A DNA stretch of 45,427 nucleotides, taken from a virus. The notes below the pieces were generated by a model, which had not been told where the DNA came from, searched no databases, and saw nothing but the letters and a program-made list of their open reading frames with translations. The DNA lies in IMG/VR virus record IMGVR_UViG_3300045988_086513, positions 1 to 45,427 of that record. The stretch is one strand, 5' to 3'. Of this stretch, positions 4,588 through 30,715 are shown in pieces. How positions within the stretch are numbered: the first letter of the stretch is position 1; each line of letters opens with the position of its first letter. A program made the translations under genes and the position numbers.

Positions 4588-6225
4588 ATGGGATTAACGC
4601 CGAAGCAGAAAGCGTTTGCGGATGAATATATCAAGAATGGCGGAAATGCATCTGATGCCGCAATGAAAGCCGGATATTCAGCAACAGTTGCCAAGAATGC
4701 AAAGAAAAACATCTTGGAAAAACGTGGAGTTTTTGAATATATAGCGGAAAAGCAAACTCTTCTGGAAAAGCAAAAAGGCACTGACATCATGTCACTGGCA
4801 GAAATCCAGCAACGCCGTTCCATGATCGCAAGAGGTGAGCTGACCGATTCATTCGGATTCGCCCCGGATTTCTCCGATCAGCTGAAATCTATGAATGATC
4901 TGGAGAAAGCACTTGCCATCAAAGAAACAAAAGAAGAACAGCAGAGGATAGCAGAGAGAGCCAGACTGCAAGAAGTCTATCATCTTGATTTGAGTGTTGT
5001 TCCGGATGTATTCCACAGGATGATTCGGGATATCCGGGCAAAGAAGCATTCGGAGTATATTCTTCCGGGCGGACGTGGATCCATGAAGTCCTCAACTATA
5101 TCACTGGTCATCCCGGAGCTGATCAAAAACAATTCGAACATGCACGCACTGATCCTGAGAAAAGTAGGCAATACCATTAAAGATTCCGTTTACGCTCAGA
5201 TGAAATGGGCACTGGACAAGCTGAACCTGTCAGAGGAATTTACCTGTAAAGTATCTCCCATGGAGATTACATACAAGGCAACCGGACAGAAGATATACTT
5301 TCGTGGTGCTGATGATCCATTAAAGATTAAGTCCATCAAGCCGGAGTTTGGTTATATCGGCATTGTCTGGTTTGAGGAGCTTGACCAGTTTGCCGGTCCT
5401 GAGGAAATCCGAAACATTCAGCAGTCCGCTATTCGTGGTGGCAATGAGGCATATAAGTTTAAATCTTTCAACCCACCAAGGAGTAAGAATAACTGGGCAA
5501 ATGAGTACACAACACAGGCAAAAGAAAAAGATGAGAGTGCAATGGTTCAGCACAGCACATATCTTGATCTGGGAATAGAGCAGGAGTGGCTTGGGGACAT
5601 GTTCCTGAAAGATGCGGAACATCTGAAAGAAACGAATCCAGATGCCTATGACAACGAATATCTGGGACATGCTAACGGTAACGGGGGCAATGTTTTTGAG
5701 TACATTGAAGAGAGAACGATCACGGATGAAGAAATCAGCCACTTTGACAGAATCTATCAGGGCGTTGACTGGGGTTGGATGCCTGATAAATATGCTTTTG
5801 TTCGTCTTTACTATGATGCTGCACGGGAAACAATCTATTTCATTGACGAAATGTACGAGAACAAGAAATCAAATGAATGGACAGCAGGGGAAATCAAGCG
5901 GCGTGGATATGATGACTACGAGATCACTTGCGATTCAGCTGAGCCTAAATCCGTGACAGACTATAGAGACTATGGACTGGCTGCCAGATCTGCGATTAAA
6001 GGTCCAGGAAGTATTGAGTATTCAATGAAGTGGTGGCAGAGAAGAAAGCTCGTGTTTGATCCTGTCAGAACACCGAACGCACGGGATGAATTTAAGAAGT
6101 ATGAGTATGAACGAGATAAGGACGGGAATATTATCAGCGGCTATCCGGATAAAGACAATCACCTGATCGACGCAAGCCGATATGCCACAGAGAGATTATG
6201 GACGAGAAGGGGGCATAGTGCATAA
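4588..6225 (+). CDS. Terminase with fused small-subunit (Terminase_2-like) N-domain and PBSX/XtmB-type large subunit
   Basis: The N-terminus LTPKQKAFADEYIKNGGNASDAAMKAGYS is a TerS HTH. From about residue 150, ILPGGRGSMKSS (Walker A) and a PBSX-type TerL body follow. It is a single 545-aa ORF. Confidence 0.8.
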   Translation: MGLTPKQKAFADEYIKNGGNASDAAMKAGYSATVAKNAKKNILEKRGVFEYIAEKQTLLEKQKGTDIMSLAEIQQRRSMIARGELTDSFGFAPDFSDQLKSMNDLEKALAIKETKEEQQRIAERARLQEVYHLDLSVVPDVFHRMIRDIRAKKHSEYILPGGRGSMKSSTISLVIPELIKNNSNMHALILRKVGNTIKDSVYAQMKWALDKLNLSEEFTCKVSPMEITYKATGQKIYFRGADDPLKIKSIKPEFGYIGIVWFEELDQFAGPEEIRNIQQSAIRGGNEAYKFKSFNPPRSKNNWANEYTTQAKEKDESAMVQHSTYLDLGIEQEWLGDMFLKDAEHLKETNPDAYDNEYLGHANGNGGNVFEYIEERTITDEEISHFDRIYQGVDWGWMPDKYAFVRLYYDAARETIYFIDEMYENKKSNEWTAGEIKRRGYDDYEITCDSAEPKSVTDYRDYGLAARSAIKGPGSIEYSMKWWQRRKLVFDPVRTPNARDEFKKYEYERDKDGNIISGYPDKDNHLIDASRYATERLWTRRGHSA

Positions 6226-6416: not shown

Positions 6417-7868
6417 ATGGGAATCATATCAACAATTAAAAGGTGGATAGGAATGTTTTTCAAAAATCAAGCAGAACAGGACTTCCGGACAGAGGTGATT
6501 GAGTCTCCTGTGATGGAAGCATTGGTGCAGAAATGTGCGAATATTTACAGAGGTACACCGTACTGGGTAGATGAGGATAACAGGATCAAGACGATCAACT
6601 TTGCAAAGTCTGTTTGTTCTGAGACTGCCCGGCTCACAACGCTTGCGATCGGTATCCAGATTGACGGATCCGCAAGAGCGACATGGCTTCAGGAACAGAT
6701 GGATAAGATCTATTTCCAAATCCGGCACTGGGTGGAATATGGTTGTGCTTATGGAACGGTGTTTATCAAGCCAAATGGAGAAGGCTTCGATATGTTCACT
6801 CCACTCGATGTTCTTTTGACAGATTGTGATAATCAGGAAGTTCGTGGAATCATCTTCAAAGACCAGTACATGGAAGGTGATAAATACTATACGAGATTGG
6901 AATATCACAGGTTTGTAGACAGTGTGGTTGATGGAGTAAAAGTATCACCTTATTACATCAGCAACAGAGCTTATGTGTCAACCAGTGCGGATAATATCGG
7001 CAATCCTATCGAGATGAGCAAAACAAAATGGGCTGCCTTACTGCCGGACACTCCACCAATCATGAAGTCTAATAACGAGAGCCTTGACGGTCCAATGTTC
7101 GGAGTATTCCGCACTCCCCAGGCGAACAATGTAGATCTCAATACCGTTCTTGGGCTTCCAATCTATGCAGAAGCTATTGAGGAACTGAAAGATCTTGATA
7201 TTGCATACAGCCGTAATGCCGGAGAGATTTTTGACTCTGAGAAGATTATCCTTGCGGATGACAGACTGCTGATGCCCGATGGAGTTCCGATCAAGAATAG
7301 AGGCGGCAGCTACAGTGAGAGACACAAAAAGGAAATGAAGTTGCCTCACTACGTTAAGAATGTGTTTAGTGCGGGACCGAATGAGTTTTATCAGGAAATC
7401 AATCCACAGCTCAATACAGACACCCGTATAGGCGGCGTAAATGCCCTTTTAAGCCAGTTGGGCTACAAGATTGGATTCTCTAACGGATATTTTGTATTCA
7501 ATGAATCCAGCGGCATCCAGACGGCTACAGGAGTGGAAGCGGAACAGCAGAGGACAGTCCAGTTCATCAAAGACGTTCGAGATAAATTGGAATCCTGCCT
7601 TGACGGTGCCATCTATGCAATGAATGTGTATGCAGATCTGTATGGCCTTGCCCCGGTAGGAACTTATGAAGTGACTTATGATTTTGGGGACATCCTGTAT
7701 TCCTACCAGGAAGACAAGGCAAGATGGTGGCAGTATGTATCTACTGGGAAAGTGCCTTTCTGGTACTACCTCATGAAGTTTGAGGGAATGAGCGAGGAAG
7801 AGGCTCGCGCTCTTGCGGATGAGGCACAGCAGCAGAATATGAATAGTGGACTGTTTGGAGAGGAGTAA
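6417..7868 (+). CDS. Portal protein (SPP1 Gp6-like)
   Basis: 483 aa, positioned after the terminase. The N-terminus is typical of SPP1-type portals. Confidence 0.8.
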   Translation: MGIISTIKRWIGMFFKNQAEQDFRTEVIESPVMEALVQKCANIYRGTPYWVDEDNRIKTINFAKSVCSETARLTTLAIGIQIDGSARATWLQEQMDKIYFQIRHWVEYGCAYGTVFIKPNGEGFDMFTPLDVLLTDCDNQEVRGIIFKDQYMEGDKYYTRLEYHRFVDSVVDGVKVSPYYISNRAYVSTSADNIGNPIEMSKTKWAALLPDTPPIMKSNNESLDGPMFGVFRTPQANNVDLNTVLGLPIYAEAIEELKDLDIAYSRNAGEIFDSEKIILADDRLLMPDGVPIKNRGGSYSERHKKEMKLPHYVKNVFSAGPNEFYQEINPQLNTDTRIGGVNALLSQLGYKIGFSNGYFVFNESSGIQTATGVEAEQQRTVQFIKDVRDKLESCLDGAIYAMNVYADLYGLAPVGTYEVTYDFGDILYSYQEDKARWWQYVSTGKVPFWYYLMKFEGMSEEEARALADEAQQQNMNSGLFGEE

Positions 7869-10683: not shown

Positions 10684-10761
10684 ATGGCAAATAAACCAAT
10701 TACACGAGAAGAAAAGTATCGCGCATATCTGACAGGAGTATCAGATGACCAGGATAAATAG
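10684..10761 (+). CDS. Possible micro-ORF (25 aa)
   Basis: Strong AAAGGAG RBS, but the ORF is very short and overlaps the next gene by 17 nt. Confidence 0.2.
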   Translation: MANKPITREEKYRAYLTGVSDDQDK

Positions 10762-11179
10762 CCATGTCGGCGGTGTACATATTAAATTTGACACAAAGCG
10801 AATCGATGGGAATTTGAAAGAAGCTCAGAAAAAACTGAATATGCAGATTGTTGCAGACTGCGAGCCTTATGTACCATTCCGACAGGGAGCGTTGAGAAGT
10901 AGCGTCCGGTTTCCACAAGGCATAGATGGTGGCGAAATCCAATACAATACGCCGTACGCACACTATCTTTACATCGGAGAGATTTATGGTCCGAACATCC
11001 CCATCAAGGATGCACAGGGTAATATTATTGGCTGGCAATCTCCGCCTAAGAAATCACCGACCGGAAGACGATTGCAATATCATGCTCCAGGAACCACCGA
11101 TCATTGGTTTGAAGAGGCAAAGCGGAACCACTTACGAGATTGGGTACAGCTGGTAAAAAGAACGGTAGGTGAGGAATAA
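10745..11179 (+). CDS. Putative minor capsid or head-tail structural protein (144 aa)
   Basis: CEPYVPFRQGALRSS...NTPYAHYLY...HWFEEAK resembles small minor-capsid or gp10-like proteins. Confidence 0.5.
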   Translation: MTRINSHVGGVHIKFDTKRIDGNLKEAQKKLNMQIVADCEPYVPFRQGALRSSVRFPQGIDGGEIQYNTPYAHYLYIGEIYGPNIPIKDAQGNIIGWQSPPKKSPTGRRLQYHAPGTTDHWFEEAKRNHLRDWVQLVKRTVGEE

Positions 11180-12417
11180 TGTTGCCACCAGAATATTTTC
11201 ATGGAAAAGAAAGAAGGATCTTGTCGCTCTATCAGGAATTGGAAGATTTTATAATGACGGATATATCCAGACGCATTCTCCAGACAGGCGGTATGACGGC
11301 AACAGCTGATCGGCTCATCTGGAGATTAACCCAGATGGGAGAGAGCCGGGCGGCAATCGAGCAGAAACTGCAGAGCCTTACCAAACTGTCACAACAAGAG
11401 CTGAGAAAGATCTTGCAGAATGCTGTGCTGACATCGTGGGACAACGACAAGGATATACTGCTTGGAATCAACGAGAATATCAGTCCGCCATTGGAAAATC
11501 CAGAAGTCATTGCGGTGATGGATGCGGAATTTAAGAAAACGCTTGGAGAACTGGCAAATCTGACAAGAACAACGTTGGATCAGTCGCAGAAAGATCTCAT
11601 CAGTCTGCTTGACGAGGTGGATATACGGATTACATCCGGAATGCAGTCTTATAGCGCTGCTGTAAGTGATGTTCTGGATAATTATGCCGGTAAGGGACTT
11701 ATGGTAGATTACCCAACCGGTGCAAGACGGACACTGGAATCGGCTGTGAGGTGTTGCGTGGTGACGAGTATGAACCAGACAGCGGCACAAGTGACGAATC
11801 AGTACATCACACAGGCTCAGACCAATTATGCCCTTATATCGGCACATCTGGGCGCGAGAACCGGGAAAGATGAACATTCCAACCATGCAGGTTGGCAGGG
11901 CAAAGCGTATCGTTTAAGGGGAGCAGAGCCGGGCTATCCGAACTTGGCAGAACATACAGGTTATGACATTGACCCGGCAACAGGGCAGGGGACTGTTCTG
12001 AATCCGACCGGTCTTCACGGGTGGAATTGTCGTCATAGTCACCAACCATGGGCGAAAGGTTTACGGAATCCGTGGGAAGATGAACACAAGGTTGATTCTG
12101 AGGAGAATAAGAAAGTTTATGAGAATACTCAGAAGCAGAGAGCGATGGAACGAGCCATCAGGAAGACCAAGCGGCGGCTGATTGAGAAGCAGCAGATCCT
12201 GAACTCTGACAATATCCCTGGTGAGGTCAAGAAAGATATCCGGGCAGAATATGACCGTTTGGCGTATCGACTGACTGAACAGAACGGGGCTTATAATTCT
12301 TTCTGTAAGGATAACAACCTCACTGCACAGTATGATCGCAACAAAGTAGCTGATTTCGGCTACAGTCAGCAGTCAAAAGCAAATGCCGGAGCAAAACGGT
12401 ATATGAAAGGACATTAA
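11179..12417 (+). CDS. Minor capsid (head morphogenesis) protein, SPP1 gp7 / Mu F-like
   Basis: The N-terminus is like phage minor capsid protein 2. The C-terminus has the GWNCRHS motif. Confidence 0.7.
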   Translation: MLPPEYFHGKERRILSLYQELEDFIMTDISRRILQTGGMTATADRLIWRLTQMGESRAAIEQKLQSLTKLSQQELRKILQNAVLTSWDNDKDILLGINENISPPLENPEVIAVMDAEFKKTLGELANLTRTTLDQSQKDLISLLDEVDIRITSGMQSYSAAVSDVLDNYAGKGLMVDYPTGARRTLESAVRCCVVTSMNQTAAQVTNQYITQAQTNYALISAHLGARTGKDEHSNHAGWQGKAYRLRGAEPGYPNLAEHTGYDIDPATGQGTVLNPTGLHGWNCRHSHQPWAKGLRNPWEDEHKVDSEENKKVYENTQKQRAMERAIRKTKRRLIEKQQILNSDNIPGEVKKDIRAEYDRLAYRLTEQNGAYNSFCKDNNLTAQYDRNKVADFGYSQQSKANAGAKRYMKGH

Positions 12418-12420
12418 CCA

Positions 12421-12726
12421 ATGAATGCAGCAGAATTTATTCAATTTTTTCTTACTATCTGTGGTGGTATCTCCATCGTAGGTGGTGCGGCGGCAGTGAT
12501 CGTGAAATGGATCGCCCCGGCGTTCCGGCTTAATCGGCGAGTGGAAGTACTGGAAGACCACGACCGCCGTGATTTTGAAACGCTCAAGAGGATTGCCGAC
12601 CGGGATTCCCTGATCCTTGAGGTCTTGTCAACGATGCTGGACAGCCAGATCTCCGGGAACAATGTCGAGGAATTAAAAAAAACAAAGCAGAAACTCACGG
12701 AGTATCTGACAGCGAATCAGCGTTGA
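12421..12726 (+). CDS. Membrane-anchored coiled-coil protein (101 aa)
   Basis: N-terminal TM segment FIQFFLTICGGISIVGGAAAVIV followed by a charged helical tail. Confidence 0.5.
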   Translation: MNAAEFIQFFLTICGGISIVGGAAAVIVKWIAPAFRLNRRVEVLEDHDRRDFETLKRIADRDSLILEVLSTMLDSQISGNNVEELKKTKQKLTEYLTANQR

Positions 12727-13103
12727 GGTAGGGGAAAACATGTCACCTCATTTTTGCTTGCTTTCTGATAGAATAAGATTGCAGGTGAGGTGTAACCCGC
12801 AAGGGTTGTCTATAGTCATTTTATTTCCTCCTTTCTTATGGGTACGTGTCCTTAATAGAAACAGATATGGTGCAATCTGGAGGTTCAAAAGCGGATGCAA
12901 TTTCCGGCACGTATCATCGCCGTTCACACGCAGGCGGCGAGATCTCCTTTATCTTTATAGGTTTGTATGAAAACTAAATAGTGGAACTCAACCCAGTACA
13001 GAGGCAGCACTGACCGTTACAGGCGGCATTGACGTTAGTCCAAAACGACACGTGGCAGGCATGACACGTAAAACACCTTGCTAACCCGGGAATCCGGGTT
13101 CTG

Positions 13104-13175
13104 CGGAATGTGCAAGTAACTGGGAACGGCCTGGTCGTAGACTAGGTCTTGATGGTTCGAATCCATCCATTCCGC
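13104..13175 (+). tRNA. tRNA-like element (canonical acceptor and T arm, non-canonical D and anticodon arms)
   Basis: Acceptor CGGAATG/CATTCCG and T arm GATGG-TTCGAAT-CCATC. There is no pairable D stem. The loop is TCGTAGA and lacks U33. If read as an anticodon it would be GTA. Confidence 0.4.
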
Positions 13176-13334
13176 TTGTTTGGAGACTGAAAGTTTGGTG
13201 GCAGGAAAAGCGCAGGGCAGTACGTAGGAATGTATAACCGAGTTCCGAATACGTGCTGTTTATCGGTGATATAGTGACTTCCTCTAGTAGTCAATAAGTG
13301 AACGTGCTGAAATGGTTCTTCCAAACATGTACAT

Positions 13335-13406
13335 CGCAGGATAGAGAAACGGAATCTCGCAAGGTTCATACCCTTGAGACTGGCGGTTCGAATCCGTCTC
13401 CTGCAA
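13335..13406 (+). tRNA. tRNA-Met (CAT) with initiator-like features
   Basis: A full cloverleaf folds by hand: D stem GAGA/TCTC, anticodon arm CAAGG-TTCATAC-CCTTG, T arm GGCGG-TTCGAAT-CCGTC. It has a C1-A72 mismatch and A11:U24. Confidence 0.8.
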
Positions 13407-13530
13407 TTTATCTGCTCAAAGCTATGCTGTTTGTTCACAGGCGGTCTATGACTTGGGTGGATTGCCCTCCCATGGGGGAATGGTTATTGCTTATCCTGAT
13501 GACTGCTGTGCGGTCCGAAAAGCATAATAA

Positions 13531-13614
13531 TGTGGCTTCGCCAAGTGGTAAGGCACCGGGCTTTGATCCCGGGAGAGGAACACTCATTCATTGGTTCGAA
13601 TCCAATAGCCACAG
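13531..13614 (+). tRNA. tRNA-Gln (TTG) with a 17-nt variable region
   Basis: Acceptor TGTGGCT/AGCCACA, D arm GCCAAGTGGTAAGGC, anticodon arm CCGGG-CTTTGAT-CCCGG and T arm ATTGG-TTCGAAT-CCAAT. There are 17 nt between the anticodon and T stems. Confidence 0.7.
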
Positions 13615-13690
13615 CTACCCCGCCGGAGGTTTACCCGGCTTAATCCATTACCGCTGACGGGCGGTTAATAATCACGTTTAGGAGGATGTT

Positions 13691-14359
13691 ATGCAGAATT
13701 ATGAACAGATTTTACAGGAACTCGGTATTGCGGTTCCAGAGGACAAGAAAAGTGATCTGAAAAAGAAAATGGACGAAAATTACCGTACAAAATCAGATTA
13801 CGACAAAGTTGTCCAGAAAAGAGATGAGTATAAGACTTCTCTCGATGATGTCCAGACTAAACTGGATGGATTCAAAGATGTTGATGTGGATGATCTGAAA
13901 GCCCAGATCGCAACGCTTACCACTCAGCTTAATGACGAGAAAACAGCACGCGCGGCTGATGCCCGGAAAGTTGAGCTTGAGAAAACAGTGAATGAATTCC
14001 TTGCGTCTACAGACGATAAAGGAGAAAAACTGTATGAATTTCTCAATGATATCACTGAGAATCATTACCGGGAAGAACTGACAAAAGCATTGGATTCTGA
14101 TTCTGCAAAGGGAAAATCCATTGCGGATATTTTCAAAGGTATGATTGTTGACAAAGATGGGAAAACAAAAGCAGGAATTTTTGTTGACAAGAAGCAGACA
14201 CAGGCACAGCAGAATGCAGCCAGATTTACAACCTCTATCCAGAAAGGCAGTGGAACCGGCGGCACTCTCACAAAAGAGGACTTCAAGAAGATGAATCTGG
14301 ACGAACGTCTGAAGCTCAAACAGTCAGACCCGGATCTCTTCACGGCACTTAGTAAATAA
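13691..14359 (+). CDS. Capsid scaffolding protein (GP20-type)
   Basis: A charged coiled-coil protein of 222 aa lying directly upstream of the major capsid gene. The RBS is AGGAGG. Confidence 0.75.
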   Translation: MQNYEQILQELGIAVPEDKKSDLKKKMDENYRTKSDYDKVVQKRDEYKTSLDDVQTKLDGFKDVDVDDLKAQIATLTTQLNDEKTARAADARKVELEKTVNEFLASTDDKGEKLYEFLNDITENHYREELTKALDSDSAKGKSIADIFKGMIVDKDGKTKAGIFVDKKQTQAQQNAARFTTSIQKGSGTGGTLTKEDFKKMNLDERLKLKQSDPDLFTALSK

Positions 14360-14475: not shown

Positions 14476-15498
14476 ATGGCAAGAACTGGAGCATTTGGCG
14501 GTTTTTCCTTTGATCCGGAAGTATTCTCCGGTTACATGGCAGAGCAGCCAACATGGAACGATGCAATTATCAATTCTGGCATTCTCGTCCAGGATTCCAC
14601 AATTATGGACTTGATCGGAGAAAAAGGTAATGTATGTACAATGCCTTTTTACGTTCCGATTGACGAAAACGATGATCCGGCACTCAATAACGATGGTGAA
14701 ACCAACAATACACCGTCTGAGATTTCCGGAAAGAAACAGACAGCCATGCTTATCCAGCGTATGAAAGCATGGAGAGCACAGGACTTCACAAAGGAACTTA
14801 CCGGAGCGGATCCGATGACCCACGTTGCAAACTCTGTGGCAGGATATTACAGGCAGGTGCGTGTTCGCGATCTTATGGCTATCGTAGATGCGGTGCTGTC
14901 TCTGAAAGGCATGGAAAATCATATCACTGACCTGTCCGAACAGACTGGAACAGGAGCTGTAACCGACGCGAACAAAGTGGATGAAACCACACTTATTTTC
15001 GCACAGCAGAAAGCACTTGGAGATTCCTCTGAAAAGATGGGACTTCTGTTCCTGCATTCTTACATGTATGCGAAATACAAAGCACTTGGTCTGGTAGACT
15101 ACAACAAGTATACCGTAACCAACGCACTTGCGGGAGACGTGAATCTTCCATCTATCGGAGGCTTTATTCCGGTTGTATCTGACAGATTTACCGCGGACAC
15201 AAGCAAACAGAACGTAGTGTACAAGACGTACATGATCGGAGCAGGTTCTATCCTGACTTGCGACAAAACCAACTATGAGGATCCGTACTATGCAGATTAC
15301 GATCCGGAGACAAAAGCCGGTATCAGAAAGCTGTACACCAAGCAGGGCTATGTCCTCCATCCGAACGGCTTTTCTATTGATGCGAATAAGATCGCAAAAG
15401 AATCTCCGACCAACGCAGAGCTTGGAAACAAGGCGAACTGGTCTCTGACTTACAACCAGAAGAATATCCGTATGGGTATGATTAAATCCAACGGTTGA
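14476..15498 (+). CDS. Major capsid protein
   Basis: 340 aa, positioned after the scaffold gene. The N-terminus MARTGAFGGFSFDPEVFSGYM is typical of SPP1-like capsid proteins. Confidence 0.8.
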   Translation: MARTGAFGGFSFDPEVFSGYMAEQPTWNDAIINSGILVQDSTIMDLIGEKGNVCTMPFYVPIDENDDPALNNDGETNNTPSEISGKKQTAMLIQRMKAWRAQDFTKELTGADPMTHVANSVAGYYRQVRVRDLMAIVDAVLSLKGMENHITDLSEQTGTGAVTDANKVDETTLIFAQQKALGDSSEKMGLLFLHSYMYAKYKALGLVDYNKYTVTNALAGDVNLPSIGGFIPVVSDRFTADTSKQNVVYKTYMIGAGSILTCDKTNYEDPYYADYDPETKAGIRKLYTKQGYVLHPNGFSIDANKIAKESPTNAELGNKANWSLTYNQKNIRMGMIKSNG

Positions 15499-18947: not shown

Positions 18948-19454
18948 ATGGCAGATCTAAAGAAGCCCATCGGCAAAGATGCCACCGGATATGAAATCCT
19001 GACAGAGGCCATGAAAGCACTTCTGAATCAGTATCCTGGTCTGGAGAAGGGCGAAAGAATCAAGTATGAAGAACTTGCCTCGGATGGCGGTATTTCCTTT
19101 TACGCTGACACCGGAGCATTGATCTATTCGGAAAAAGAGGATGTGTGCGGAACGATGCATCAGGTATGCCAGTATCCGTTTCTTGTGGTGTATCGTACGG
19201 CATCCGGCAGAGAGCGGCAGAAACTTTCTATCCAGAAATTTCTGGACAACCTTGGCAAGTGGATATGCCGGGAACCAGTAATTATAAATGGTTTCGAGAC
19301 ACACTTATCTGCTTTCCCGGAGCTTTCGCAGGGGCGGAAGATAAAACGTATCACTCGTGATAACTCTTACGGCACAGAGCCGCAGGAGAGCGGCGTACAG
19401 GACTGGTTGTTACCGATTACAGTCAAGTACGAATACGAGTGGGAGAACTGGTAA
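18948..19454 (+). CDS. Putative tail completion/terminator protein
   Basis: Position only: it is the last gene before the major tail protein. Confidence 0.4.
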   Translation: MADLKKPIGKDATGYEILTEAMKALLNQYPGLEKGERIKYEELASDGGISFYADTGALIYSEKEDVCGTMHQVCQYPFLVVYRTASGRERQKLSIQKFLDNLGKWICREPVIINGFETHLSAFPELSQGRKIKRITRDNSYGTEPQESGVQDWLLPITVKYEYEWENW

Positions 19455-19596: not shown

Positions 19597-19636
19597 ACAA
19601 GGCCTTTTGAAAATTATGGGCAGAAAGGACATTTCT

Positions 19637-20137
19637 ATGGCAGTTACAGGCAAGATTGATCGTAAATATATGGCTCATTTCATTGATGCGGGTTCCCTTT
19701 GCGGTGGATCCACACCAAAATATGAGCGTCTTGGAAAGGATCTGGAAGAGTACAATATTGAACTCAACCCGGATACCGAAACATCTAAAAATATTCTTGG
19801 AGAATCCACATTCAAACATAACGGCTACGAAGTTTCTTCTGATGCTGATCCGTTCTATGCAGATACCACATCAGATCTGTTCGAAAAGCTTCAGCAGATT
19901 GTAGATGAACGTCTTAAAGATGACAATCTGAAAACAAGTGCAGTTGAAGTACATCTCTGGAAAGAAGCAACAGCCGGTAAATACGAAGCATACAAGCAGG
20001 ATTGTCATGTTGTGCCGACTTCCTACGGCGGTGACACATCCGGCTATCAGATTCCGTTTACCGTGAACTATGTTGGTGAGCGTGTAAAAGGAAAATTCGA
20101 CATCTCTACAAAAGCATTTACAGCAGACAGCGAATGA
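19637..20137 (+). CDS. Major tail protein
   Basis: MAVTGKIDRKYMAHFIDA... is a typical siphovirus major tail protein N-terminus. The start is uncertain (19616 or 19637). 19637 has an AAAGGA RBS. Confidence 0.7.
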   Translation: MAVTGKIDRKYMAHFIDAGSLCGGSTPKYERLGKDLEEYNIELNPDTETSKNILGESTFKHNGYEVSSDADPFYADTTSDLFEKLQQIVDERLKDDNLKTSAVEVHLWKEATAGKYEAYKQDCHVVPTSYGGDTSGYQIPFTVNYVGERVKGKFDISTKAFTADSE

Positions 20138-29130: not shown

Positions 29131-29395
29131 ATAGAACGATGTAGATTATTACCGTTAGTCACAGGTTAGTCACAAAACAATTATGATGCAAGTCTGGAAC
29201 ACCGCAAAAACAAGGGATTTCGCTAAAAATGGAAAATAAAGTACATTAAGTATGAGATAAAATAAGCAAGCATTGGAAAACACCCGCAAAATGTGGAAAA
29301 AGCCTGTAAAATCAATGGTTTGCAAGTGACTGATAGAACGATTTAAAGTGAATAAATGCAAGATAAACAGGAACGGTTAGTCACAGTTAGTCACA
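29131..29395. promoter_or_regulatory. attP-like region with integrase arm-type repeats
   Basis: Tandem GTTAGTCACA at 29154-63 and 29165-74, and again at 29376-85 and 29386-95. ATAGAACGAT at 29131-40 and 29333-42. The core is AT-rich. Confidence 0.5.
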
Positions 29396-30554
29396 AAAAT
29401 GGAACCTTTATTTTTTCGATTTCCGTGCGGAGTTCTTCCAGAGTCCTATGCCCATATACGGCGTTTGTGATATCATTTCCAAAAGAATGCCCAAGCATTC
29501 GTTTACGATCATTTTCACGAACGCCGTATTTTTCACATAAAGCAGAAAAAGTGTGCCGGCAGTCATGAGGAGTGTGCTTCGGGTTTCCGACAATTCCCAA
29601 TCGTTCCAATGTTGGATAGAAATGTGCACGCCGGTGATGCGTCTGTGTGTAAGGATAGAGTTTTCCATTTTGAGACAAAACTTTTTGCTTGGCAAAATCA
29701 TAAATTGCAGGATGAATTGGAACAACTCTGTTTTTTCCAGACTTTGTCTTGATACCGCCCTGAAAATAATGTTCTTCAAGGTTAGTTGTTAATTTAAGGA
29801 CTTCACCAATTCTCCAGCCAGAATAACACATAATGAGAATAAGCTGCACTTCTGGATCATCCGTATTGCACCACAGGATCTGCAGTTCCTGATCAGAAAA
29901 AGGCGTTCCGTGTTCCACGTCATCCTTTGAGTTTATAGTTACATACAATGCTTTATTTTCAGAGACGATTTCTGCATAGATGGCATATTTGTACATTTGC
30001 TTAAAAAGTATCAAGAGTGCGGAGAGACTCGACTTTTTCAGTGTGCAGTCATCAATCACCTTTTGCAGATCAGGGGCTTTCAGGTCTTCAAATATGCATT
30101 CGTGGATAGAGGCAGTTCTTTTGTATGCAGACTGGTAAGATGCTTTGGAACTACGGGATAATTCAGTATCTTCTGGAAATTTCCATGCCATAAACTGTTC
30201 GTATACTTCAGAGAATGTAAATTTATGTATTTCCGGATGCTTTTCTTCCACACCTTTAATTGTATTGTAATCTGAGATAATACGATGTATGAGAGAATCT
30301 ACATCTGTTGTAGGAGATATTTCAAGGGTTTCTTCCATGCCTGGCTGATATGTACCAGCTTTATAGGCAGTAAGAACCGTAAATCCTTTCAGATAATCAT
30401 CCACATAACAGATTGCCGGTGGACGGACTGTTTTTCCGGTTTTATCAATGGTAGCTGGTGGATGCACGGCATAACAATTTCGCCGCCCTTTACCAAGATA
30501 CCGGATGCTCCCGAAGTTATTTGGCAGTTTGGGATATTTCTTTCTTTTTGCCAT
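29391..30554 (-). CDS. int: Tyrosine integrase (387 aa)
   Basis: The C-terminus HDCRHTF...LGHS...VYGH carries the R-H-R-Y catalytic signature. The start MAKRKKYPK has an AAGGAAG RBS. Confidence 0.85.
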   Translation of the reverse strand: MAKRKKYPKLPNNFGSIRYLGKGRRNCYAVHPPATIDKTGKTVRPPAICYVDDYLKGFTVLTAYKAGTYQPGMEETLEISPTTDVDSLIHRIISDYNTIKGVEEKHPEIHKFTFSEVYEQFMAWKFPEDTELSRSSKASYQSAYKRTASIHECIFEDLKAPDLQKVIDDCTLKKSSLSALLILFKQMYKYAIYAEIVSENKALYVTINSKDDVEHGTPFSDQELQILWCNTDDPEVQLILIMCYSGWRIGEVLKLTTNLEEHYFQGGIKTKSGKNRVVPIHPAIYDFAKQKVLSQNGKLYPYTQTHHRRAHFYPTLERLGIVGNPKHTPHDCRHTFSALCEKYGVRENDRKRMLGHSFGNDITNAVYGHRTLEELRTEIEKIKVPFL

Positions 30555-30613
30555 AATATCATCTTCCTTTCTTAAAATTGGGTACAAAAATAACAGACAC
30601 ACAAATGTTCTGG

Positions 30614-30715
30614 TTGTATGTCTGCTCCGAAGATGATACAATATGTTTGCGTTTGAAGCATCTCTTCGGAGATTCTTGAGCCGTCCTTGTGCTGGTAACA
30701 CAGGGGCGGTTTTTT
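30614..30715 (+). ncRNA. Candidate plus-strand small RNA antisense to the int leader
   Basis: TTGTAT (30614-19), a 17-nt spacer, then TACAAT (30637-42). A UUCG hairpin lies at 30660-73. An 11-bp terminator stem (30681-91/30699-709) is followed by T6. Its G-U pairs make it specific to the plus strand. Confidence 0.4.

Follow-up and report, generated by a model that had tools for sequence, protein, structure and literature searches.

What fills the one wide gap in the head genes of the phage in IMG/VR virus record IMGVR_UViG_3300045988_086513, and does that gap encode one RNA or several? The window, as we use the term, is the whole stretch of DNA analysed (positions 1 to 45,427 of that record; 45,427 nucleotides, nt), and coordinates refer to it unless another locus is named. 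Between a small membrane-protein gene, whose open reading frame (ORF) stops at 12726, and a scaffold gene starting at 13691 lie 964 non-coding nt (12727-13690), by far the largest junction of the structural module, where the others overlap or measure less than 25 nt, bar five at 79-206 nt. An earlier reading of the letters alone, here called the original prediction, took this gap for a highly structured island with two clean transfer RNAs (tRNAs) and one tRNA-like element, and suggested a single large non-coding RNA belonging or related to the ornate phage classes ROOL and GOLLD. Our analysis indicates that the gap is probably a modular island of separate RNA genes on one strand, punctuated by tRNAs, and not a single RNA. 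One of its parts, RAGATH-21, is already catalogued; another, elemD, is not in Rfam and appears to be a new RNA family within a known kind, the phage tRNA-island RNAs.

On the plus strand the modules follow each other as a -10-like box, a leader hairpin, RAGATH-21, a second hairpin, a pre-tRNA element (elemC), the tRNA-like element, elemD and an initiator-like tRNA-Met, after which come a structured spacer, tRNA-Gln, two hairpins and the ribosome-binding site of the scaffold gene. The view of the original prediction that the gap holds non-coding RNA besides its tRNAs was borne out by RAGATH-21, which scores above its Rfam threshold, and by covariation in elemD, so that the island is more than tRNAs plus spacers.

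Modules in related phages

Relatives were collected as 80 loci found through the minor head protein and about 110 found through short words from the island (numbered with the prefix L). Across these loci the parts of the island, modules of 63-158 nt, are found apart from one another, and no helix in the centroid fold spans modules. RAGATH-21, elemC and a normal tRNA occur with elemD absent in L002 and L003, at least 30 contigs of 45-90 kilobases (kb) carry elemC, the tRNA-like element, elemD and tRNA-Met within arrays of 5-8 tRNA genes and without RAGATH-21 (a combination seen in L083-L112), and L119 has the island modules in a different order. Because other phages have these modules singly or in different combinations, the gap is not one RNA, and the single large non-coding RNA once proposed for it has to be given up.

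An Rfam scan of the whole window returned four matches above gathering score (RAGATH-21, the two tRNAs and a skipping-rope RNA), and permissive scans (E ≤ 10, lax filters) covered 12500-13900 and 13170-13340. The ROOL model (RF03087, 574 positions, gathering score 99.1 bits) had no match in the window at gathering score and none at E ≤ 10 in the two subregions; the Rfam models of GOLLD, transfer-messenger RNA (tmRNA), group I and II introns and ribozymes had none at gathering score or at E ≤ 10 in 12500-13900 and 13170-13340. The ROOL search itself works, since it scores ROOL at 384-389 bits in L118 (5842-6400, minus strand) and L122 (2277-2834, minus strand), directly after the tRNA-Met that follows elemD, in the order tRNA-Tyr, elemD, tRNA-Met, ROOL, tRNA-Ser on phage contigs of 49-75 kb. 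With no match even in the permissive scans, the gap is neither a member nor a relative of ROOL or GOLLD; as to genomic niche the hunch was not groundless, a true ROOL following the elemD-tRNA unit in these two phages.

elemD, a conserved RNA outside Rfam

elemD occupies 13176-13334 on the plus strand (158 nt). The fetched loci gave 108 nhmmer hits and 38 distinct full-length copies, and wherever a source was named it was a human-gut assembly. Measured to the window copy, median identity is 96% for elemD, 86% for the abutting tRNA-Met, 90% for elemC and 75% for the spacers and the neighbouring protein gene. As many as 95 of the 158 positions are invariant over several phage lineages, most of the 'unpaired' ones included, and variation is centred on one stem and one short loop.

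No Rfam family matched elemD, the E ≤ 10 scans included, and a keyword search of the literature found no elemD-like RNA in phage tRNA arrays. When 50,697 phage records were searched with 12400-13900 (blastn), matches were confined to a handful of gut-phage records, a Dulem virus and a Xanthomonas phage; a single one of these GenBank records, the unverified gut-phage contig MT838775, has elemD. Across 185,579 species genomes an invariant 20-mer of elemD occurred just twice, both times by chance. A covariance model that we built gives 196 bits to the copy in the window, which is the only one it detects there; it detected no copy either in 38 loci not known to have elemD (distant head-gene relatives, the 14-kb region of Blautia phage Montmirail and chance pattern hits).

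The fold tested, on the plus strand, has the helices P1 (13177-13184 with 13320-13327), P2 (13185-13189 with 13288-13292), P3 (13203-13207 with 13279-13283) and P4, a long bulged hairpin (13216-13231 with 13242-13260); the loop of P4 pairs with its 3' flank as a pseudoknot (13237-13241 with 13263-13267), and P5 (13300-13303 with 13315-13318) completes the fold. Standard pairs fill 99.5% of 1595 cells, and two-sided changes occur at seven pairs, of which P4 has five, P2 has one (AU/UG/CG) and the pseudoknot has one (AU in 27 copies, GC in 7, other in 4). None of 500 shuffles reached any of the observed measures, and sliding the partners by 1-3 columns lowered pairing to 32-45%. The original prediction had listed a 13-base-pair (bp) bulged hairpin at 13218-13258, and it is here that the five covarying pairs of P4 fall and that elemD has its core. 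Many of the pairs are G-U, which would be A-C mismatches on the opposite strand, so the structure exists on the plus strand only. Coding is excluded, because all three plus-strand frames are stopped within 20 codons and homologues differ by indels of 1-3 nt.

The ends of elemD coincide with those of its neighbours. In most of the 38 contexts it begins at the discriminator base of an upstream tRNA or tRNA-like element, with P1 starting at the next base, and its end lies about 7 nt past P1, where the downstream tRNA begins (position +1); one divergent subgroup has 3-4 nt between the upstream tRNA and elemD. The upstream tRNA is varied (Tyr, Thr, Ile, Met or degenerate). In most contexts, then, elemD is an RNA encoded between tRNA genes of the same strand, with its ends at tRNA processing sites. 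In a divergent subgroup (L137, L184 and L192) the downstream tRNA has an initiator-type acceptor stem and the anticodon CCU.

The tRNAs, the tRNA-like element and elemC

Both tRNAs of the original prediction were recovered by ARAGORN and Rfam alike as cloverleaves (Rfam RF00005, 13335-13406 and 13531-13614). The tRNA-Met(CAU) after elemD lies at 13335-13406 on the plus strand (Rfam, 56.8 bits; 13334-13407 in ARAGORN), has a C1 x A72 mismatch and A11:U24, and does not encode CCA. The absence of a G-C pair at 1:72, together with A11:U24, is the signature of bacterial initiator tRNA. Over the 38 contexts the tRNA after elemD forms one homologous family in which 1:72 is C.A, A.A, G.A, C.U, A-U or U-A and never G-C, and by these features it looks like an initiator tRNA.

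Downstream, tRNA-Gln(UUG) is called at 13531-13615 on the plus strand by ARAGORN and at 13531-13614 by Rfam (57 bits), again with CCA not encoded. It carries U1-A72 and G73, which are typical of tRNA-Gln, and has a class-II-like variable region of 17 nt where the Rfam alignment shows a 15-nt insertion; the gene is 98-100% identical in 11 loci, and tRNA-Gln genes in other arrays have a normal 72-74 nt. The plus-strand spacer between the two tRNAs, gapE (13408-13530), is structured (fold z = -1.81), is covered over at least 60% of its length by 15 loci at 75-99% identity, and has helices that are mostly paired in L001. The last plus-strand spacer, gapF (13616-13690), has hairpins at 13622-13639 and 13650-13665, followed by the Shine-Dalgarno sequence AGGAGG of the scaffold gene at 13680-13685. 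It is found in 25 loci at about 75% identity, and L001 keeps its stems with other sequence (CCGG/CCGG becoming CCAG/CUGG, and ACCGC/GCGGU becoming ACCUGC/GCAGGU). No terminator with a U tract lies between tRNA-Gln and the scaffold ribosome-binding site.

The third tRNA-related unit, at 13103-13175 on the plus strand, agrees with the tRNA-like element described originally: an acceptor stem of 8 bp and a regular T arm are present (fold z = -2.93), a D stem is absent, and a 9-bp hairpin with a GUA triloop takes the place of the anticodon arm. It falls below the thresholds of the tools, with no call by ARAGORN and a best Rfam match to tRNA-Sec of 20 bits (E = 0.59), under the gathering score; we call it 'tRNA-like' because it lacks the D stem and 7-nt anticodon loop of a cloverleaf and is not found by standard tools. 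In other phages the same slot holds a class-II tRNA-Tyr(GUA), a tRNA-Thr, a tRNA-Ile, a tRNA-Met or other degenerate forms, one of which has an anticodon loop short by three bases. An acceptor stem and a T arm are the features recognised by RNase P, RNase Z and the CCA-adding enzyme, and we infer that the element is a decayed tRNA kept as a processing signal and not for decoding. A decayed tRNA can, on this view, persist as a processing signal.

elemC (13040-13102, plus strand; ..GUGGCAGGCAUGACACG..UUGCU) immediately precedes this unit and is kept in 87 loci at a median identity of 90%. It lies 2-3 nt 5' of a tRNA or tRNA-like element throughout, with or without RAGATH-21 and with or without elemD. 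It ends in the hairpin AACCCGG-GAAU-CCGGGUU (13083-13100), 2 nt from the tRNA-like element in the window; the stem that the original prediction placed at 13084-13099 is invariant among the homologues (AACCCGG/CCGGGUU) and its loop is variable.

In two other tRNA arrays with elemD (L132, L144), relaxed ARAGORN settings give tRNAs of 72 nt with the anticodon UCA, resembling opal suppressors, a hint that UGA may be recoded in some of these gut phages.

RAGATH-21 and its surroundings

RAGATH-21 (Rfam RF03097) lies at 12841-12915 on the plus strand as a three-stem junction with conserved junction nucleotides (CCUUAAUAGAAAC and GGAGGUU.AAAAGCGGAUGCAAUUUCCG), and scores 78.8 bits against a gathering score of 70.3. 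The match, with E = 9e-14 for the whole window, takes in all 76 model positions, and the aligned sequence shares with the consensus a 10-bp P1, the inner stems and the invariant strings at the junction; score and alignment both place it in the family. It departs from the consensus in two non-canonical pairs, both in the variable hairpin. The 8-bp 'long-range helix' between 12841 and 12908 that had been noticed by eye proved to be P1, the closing stem. Homologues in the relatives score 79-93 bits, and the sequence of P1 changes between them with pairing kept (GGUACGUG/CACGUAUC versus GUGAAUAUG/CAUAUUCAU). RAGATH-21 is an orphan candidate RNA, reportedly from the comparative screens of Breaker and Weinberg, and it is not named anywhere in the literature that we searched.

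Its flanks were compared across 23-26 distinct variants. On the 5' side, a TGnTAnnnT or TATAAT box lies 66-85 nt from RAGATH-21 in 23 of 23 distinct upstream flanks, within surrounding sequence that differs; in the window this is TGATAGAAT (TGnTAnnnT; 12766-12774, plus strand), a putative extended -10 box and candidate promoter of the RNA island. The leader hairpin AACCC-GCAA-GGGUU follows on the same strand at 12794-12807, its sequence confirmed, and relatives have at this position hairpins of other sequence (AAGCAGAAAUGCUU, AAGUGGUUGCCGCCACUU, CAAGG..CCUUG). A pyrimidine box, CCUCCUUUCUU (12827-12837, plus strand), ends 3 nt 5' of RAGATH-21, and CCUCCUUUC or a one-base variant of it stands 2-7 nt 5' of P1 in all distinct variants.

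On the 3' side, the plus-strand hairpin UCGCCG...CGGCGA (12917-12940) and a CUCCUUU box (12944-12950) together span 12917-12950 and are listed by a scanner as a terminator-like site, with a poor U tract; at the same place 3' of P1, relatives have a hairpin of unrelated sequence and then (A)CCUCCUU. Two hairpins of the original prediction, 12794-12807 and 12918-12939, therefore recur at the same places with different sequences in relatives. Beyond this site the plus-strand spacer gapB (12951-13039) is variable, has no supported structure (z = +0.42 for 12916-13039) and is present only in the closest relatives.

The boxes CCUCCUUUCUU and CUCCUUU match the 3' tail of Firmicute 16S ribosomal RNA. 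Such boxes flank RAGATH-21 in every variant examined, and RAGATH-21 itself contains the complementary GGAGGU; box variants carry C-to-U changes, which would keep G-U pairing. The boxes may pair with the internal GGAGGU, or they may act on ribosomes or messenger RNAs or mimic the ribosome; the variants offer no compensatory change for the pairing. The element itself agrees with its Rfam model, and the window adds a setting that apparently lies beyond the 76-nt model, namely the -10 box, the leader hairpin, CCUCCUU boxes on both sides, the trailing hairpin, and elemC with a tRNA downstream. With the putative promoter box, the boxes resembling an anti-Shine-Dalgarno sequence and a tRNA on its 3' side, RAGATH-21 gains a defined setting from which testable hypotheses can be drawn.

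Coding potential

The claim that the gap is free of genes was upheld: its bounding ORF ends (12726 and 13691) were confirmed, the ORFs inside it were rejected as genes, and none of those examined is a conserved protein-coding frame. ORF 13298-13657 crosses both tRNAs, and ORF 12740-12970 crosses RAGATH-21 and is shifted in frame by a 2-nt indel in the nearest relative; plus-strand ORFs were rejected because they overlap RNA genes or are frame-shifted in that relative. On the minus strand, both pyrimidine boxes beside RAGATH-21 read as strong Shine-Dalgarno sites, and coding behind them was rejected because the short ORFs are kept neither in frame nor in sequence. One with a perfect Shine-Dalgarno site, a 23-amino-acid (aa) ORF antisense to the leader (12748-12816; AGGAGG, a 7-nt spacer and ATG at 12816), loses its frame between the window and the 91%-identical L004 and has no peptide in common with L001 or L003; we treat it as a probable by-product of the pyrimidine box. 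Homologues of elemD have 1-3-nt indels that disrupt a minus-strand ORF of 98 aa lying across it. Where annotation places 'hypothetical protein' ORFs over gaps of this kind, they are artefacts.

A proposed tRNA-punctuated island and competing explanations

How might such an island be expressed? It would be transcribed late, from its own extended -10 promoter, by read-through from the head operon, or by both, and transcription probably continues into the scaffold and capsid genes, since no terminator lies in between. In Firmicutes, RNase Z cleaves tRNA precursors that lack CCA just behind the discriminator, and RNase P cleaves them at +1. As no tRNA of the island encodes CCA, an RNase Z cut is expected after each discriminator; RNase P would cut each tRNA at its 5' end, so that the tRNAs and the decayed tRNA would serve as punctuation marks. 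The predicted products are an RNA of about 320 nt with RAGATH-21 and elemC (3' end at 13102), the tRNA-like piece, an elemD RNA of 157-158 nt (13177-13334), the two tRNAs and the scaffold messenger RNA. As for elemD itself, we speculate, and hold the idea loosely, that it acts by binding some conserved part of the host's translation or tRNA machinery, because it combines invariant loops, a compensating stem and a pseudoknot with an association with an initiator-type tRNA and a place in tRNA arrays, sometimes by ROOL.

Several observations weigh against this account or against parts of it. The promoter, the read-through and the RNase P and RNase Z cuts are all inferred from sequence features, the extended -10 box comes without a clear -35 and drew no call from a promoter consensus scanner for that lack, and in L139 and L151-L153 no more than a 5' piece of the tRNA after elemD is left, joined to unrelated sequence, which would deprive RNase P of a site for making the 3' end of elemD and is the main exception to the processing model. 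P1, P3 and P5 are invariant, which limits covariation to seven pairs among closely related sequences, and recent horizontal spread among gut phages, or gene conversion between them, could account, beside constraint, for part of the 96% identity of elemD. Clustering the ORFs of 62 elemD loci yielded no recurring protein partner across phage groups (the only universal 'family' was a spurious antisense ORF over elemD, and the others track phage lineage), and elemD is no more complementary to plus-strand transcripts of the window than chance allows (the best match has 12 nt, for which about 0.4 are expected); lacking a recurring partner protein and a target above chance, the functional guess is left without direct support. 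Nor does folding energy help: against shuffles the island reaches z = -1.0 on the plus strand (3 of 20 shuffles were as good) and 0.0 on the minus strand, single modules range from -2.9 to +0.4, and elemD at z = -1.39 is not significant. The case for structure must consequently be comparative, because the energy of the island is not above chance. The original phrase 'highly structured' carries that caveat. Its helix coordinates are correct base for base, and the check it called for, covariation, gave the seven two-sided pairs of elemD with 0 of 500 shuffles; its three mutually exclusive pairing partners obtained no support.

Five other explanations of the gap were considered alongside the modular island. 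If the island were a cis-acting leader of the scaffold and capsid operon, controlling antitermination, stability or translation without free-standing RNAs, one would understand why it lies on the operon strand directly 5' of the scaffold ribosome-binding site with no terminator intervening, why boxes like Shine-Dalgarno and anti-Shine-Dalgarno sequences surround RAGATH-21, and why the two gapF hairpins, variable in sequence yet kept, abut the scaffold Shine-Dalgarno sequence; we nevertheless consider it unlikely, given that elemC, elemD and the tRNAs sit in tRNA arrays of unrelated larger phages and not before a scaffold gene, that Montmirail expresses the same operon without the island, and that tRNA processing would cut the leader off the messenger RNA. 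That the gap is only a small tRNA cluster, with non-functional spacer or tRNA debris between the genes, fits the clearly decayed tRNA-like element, the variable and unstructured gapB and the mosaic nature of phage tRNA arrays. Such a cluster is a decidedly unlikely full account, however, when RAGATH-21 is a curated family above threshold, elemC is kept in 87 loci, and elemD is better conserved than the tRNA that adjoins it (96% versus 86%), with substitutions centred on one stem where they compensate and with invariant loops. Very unlikely, too, is conservation of elemD as a DNA site, whether for anchoring recombination, for packaging or integration, or for homing: the extreme conservation, the sharp boundaries at flanking tRNAs and the shuffling of cassettes upstream speak for it, but the compensatory changes pass through G-U intermediates that pair on the plus strand only, tRNA processing sites frame the element precisely, the integrase (29391-30701) and terminase genes are far away, and elemD has no inverted or direct repeat typical of such sites.

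Still less can be said for the other two. One ornate RNA of the ROOL or GOLLD kind filling all 964 nt, with the tRNAs embedded, is largely refuted, and we give it scant credence: ROOL and GOLLD do adjoin or interleave phage tRNAs (PMC5737381, PMC12286853) and a true ROOL stands beside the elemD-tRNA unit in L118 and L122, yet neither class matches at E ≤ 10, modules recombine freely between phages, the fold is no better than that of shuffles and has no module-spanning centroid helix, and the spacers gapA and gapB are poorly conserved. tmRNA tags have a hydrophobic, alanine-rich end, and G3:U70 is the mark for charging with alanine. A permuted or two-piece tmRNA made of the tRNA-like element, elemD and tRNA-Met is disfavoured and the least credible of the five; relaxed ARAGORN does call 'tmRNAp' over tRNA-Tyr, elemD and tRNA-Met in several loci, with the tag ERAEMVLPNMYIAG*, but neither default ARAGORN nor Rfam finds one, the 'tag' runs into the tRNA-Met gene, so that the relaxed calls are spurious, the tag lacks the expected end and the acceptor stem lacks G3:U70, and the flanking tRNAs are complete on their own.

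A different question is whether elemD, within the modular island, represents a new class of phage RNA that has a complex fold and its own biochemical task. We rate this as rather unlikely, though compatible with what was observed, in that about 95 of 158 positions are invariant, the architecture is a pseudoknotted three-way one, Rfam lacks it, no protein partner recurs and ROOL can be its neighbour. Candidate jobs could be docking on host translation initiation or tRNA metabolism together with the initiator-type tRNA, acting as a decoy against defences that target tRNAs, or catalysis as a ribozyme.

Comparison with known systems

The island shares with ROOL and GOLLD a niche in phages, next to or between tRNA genes and probably co-transcribed with them, and differs in having no sequence or structure match to either. 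At 158 nt, elemD is much shorter than ROOL (about 580 nt) and many GOLLD RNAs (more than 800 nt), and it is nearly invariant, whereas ROOL has few highly conserved nucleotides. ROOL and GOLLD are found near phage tRNA islands, possibly co-transcribed, and their function is unknown (PMC5737381, a 2017 survey of 224 candidate RNA motifs; PMC12286853).

Small RNAs in a phage tRNA region also recall phage T4, whose RNAC and RNAD (species 1 and 2 RNAs) are encoded among its tRNA genes and freed by host enzymes from precursors that contain tRNA. The likeness is one of arrangement and not of descent; host phylum and phage type differ, with no T4 match in the blastn search of 12400-13900. RNAC and RNAD are late, stable small RNAs of unknown function (PMC9697503). 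With elemD, the enigmatic RNAs of tRNA islands (ROOL, GOLLD, T4 RNAC and RNAD) would gain a compact, tightly conserved member that is abundant in human-gut phages of Lachnospiraceae type, whose ends appear to be set by tRNA processing and whose small size suits it to chemical probing, structure determination and genetics.

For tRNAs as punctuation, the mitochondrial tRNA punctuation model and MALAT1-mascRNA are precedents. Here too a non-decoding acceptor stem and T arm stand exactly at the junction of two other RNAs, as do the t-elements of plant mitochondria, tRNA-like elements at transcript junctions (PMC1920247). Those precedents are eukaryotic or organellar and their cleavages demonstrated, whereas here the cleavages are read from geometry alone. 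A module of acceptor stem and T arm joined to a structured RNA with a pseudoknot also resembles tmRNA; the difference is that here there is no G3:U70 and no credible tag frame, and what remains of the cloverleaf is closed and stands apart, where in tmRNA the tRNA-like part is formed by both ends of a single molecule.

Accessory cargo among the head genes

The genes around the island are assigned by PHROGs to the terminase (4588-6225), the portal (6417-7868), two minor head proteins (10745-11179 and 11179-12417), the scaffold (13691-14359) and the major head protein (14476-15498). The small membrane-protein gene between the second minor head gene and the island (12421-12726, plus strand) is kept in 72 loci at about 75% nucleotide identity, matches no PHROG or Pfam family, and travels with the RNA island as cargo. 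The nearest cultured phage is Blautia phage Montmirail, with a major capsid protein 82% identical; it has a single annotated hypothetical ORF of 40 aa between its minor head and scaffold genes and lacks the membrane-protein gene. Because the Montmirail junction holds that ORF only, the membrane-protein gene and the RNA island are accessory cargo.

Many head-gene relatives have a stretch of about 3 kb separating the membrane-protein gene from RAGATH-21. In L138 (4345-6979, minus strand) five further ORFs (159, 73, 259, 140 and 189 aa) occupy this place, none of them assigned to a family in a Pfam search, and are followed by the RNA island, including tRNA-Tyr, elemD, tRNA-Met and tRNA-Gln, and then by the scaffold gene. 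The junction between the minor head and scaffold genes is a hot spot for accessory cargo in a temperate phage related to Montmirail. The phage is judged temperate because it has an integrase gene (29391-30701, minus strand; PHROG 1, E = 6e-36). As the elemD 20-mer has no true match in species genomes, the host is judged only from the 82% capsid identity to the Blautia phage. The phage of the island is thereby related to one member of a cultured pair, Blautia coccoides and its phage Montmirail.

Outside the gap, the window has a second catalogued orphan RNA, a skipping-rope RNA (RF02924; 19469-19552, plus strand), which scores 60.2 bits against a threshold of 36.7. It fills the 152-nt gap between a tail-completion gene (18948-19454) and ORF 19607-20137, and L095 has a copy too.

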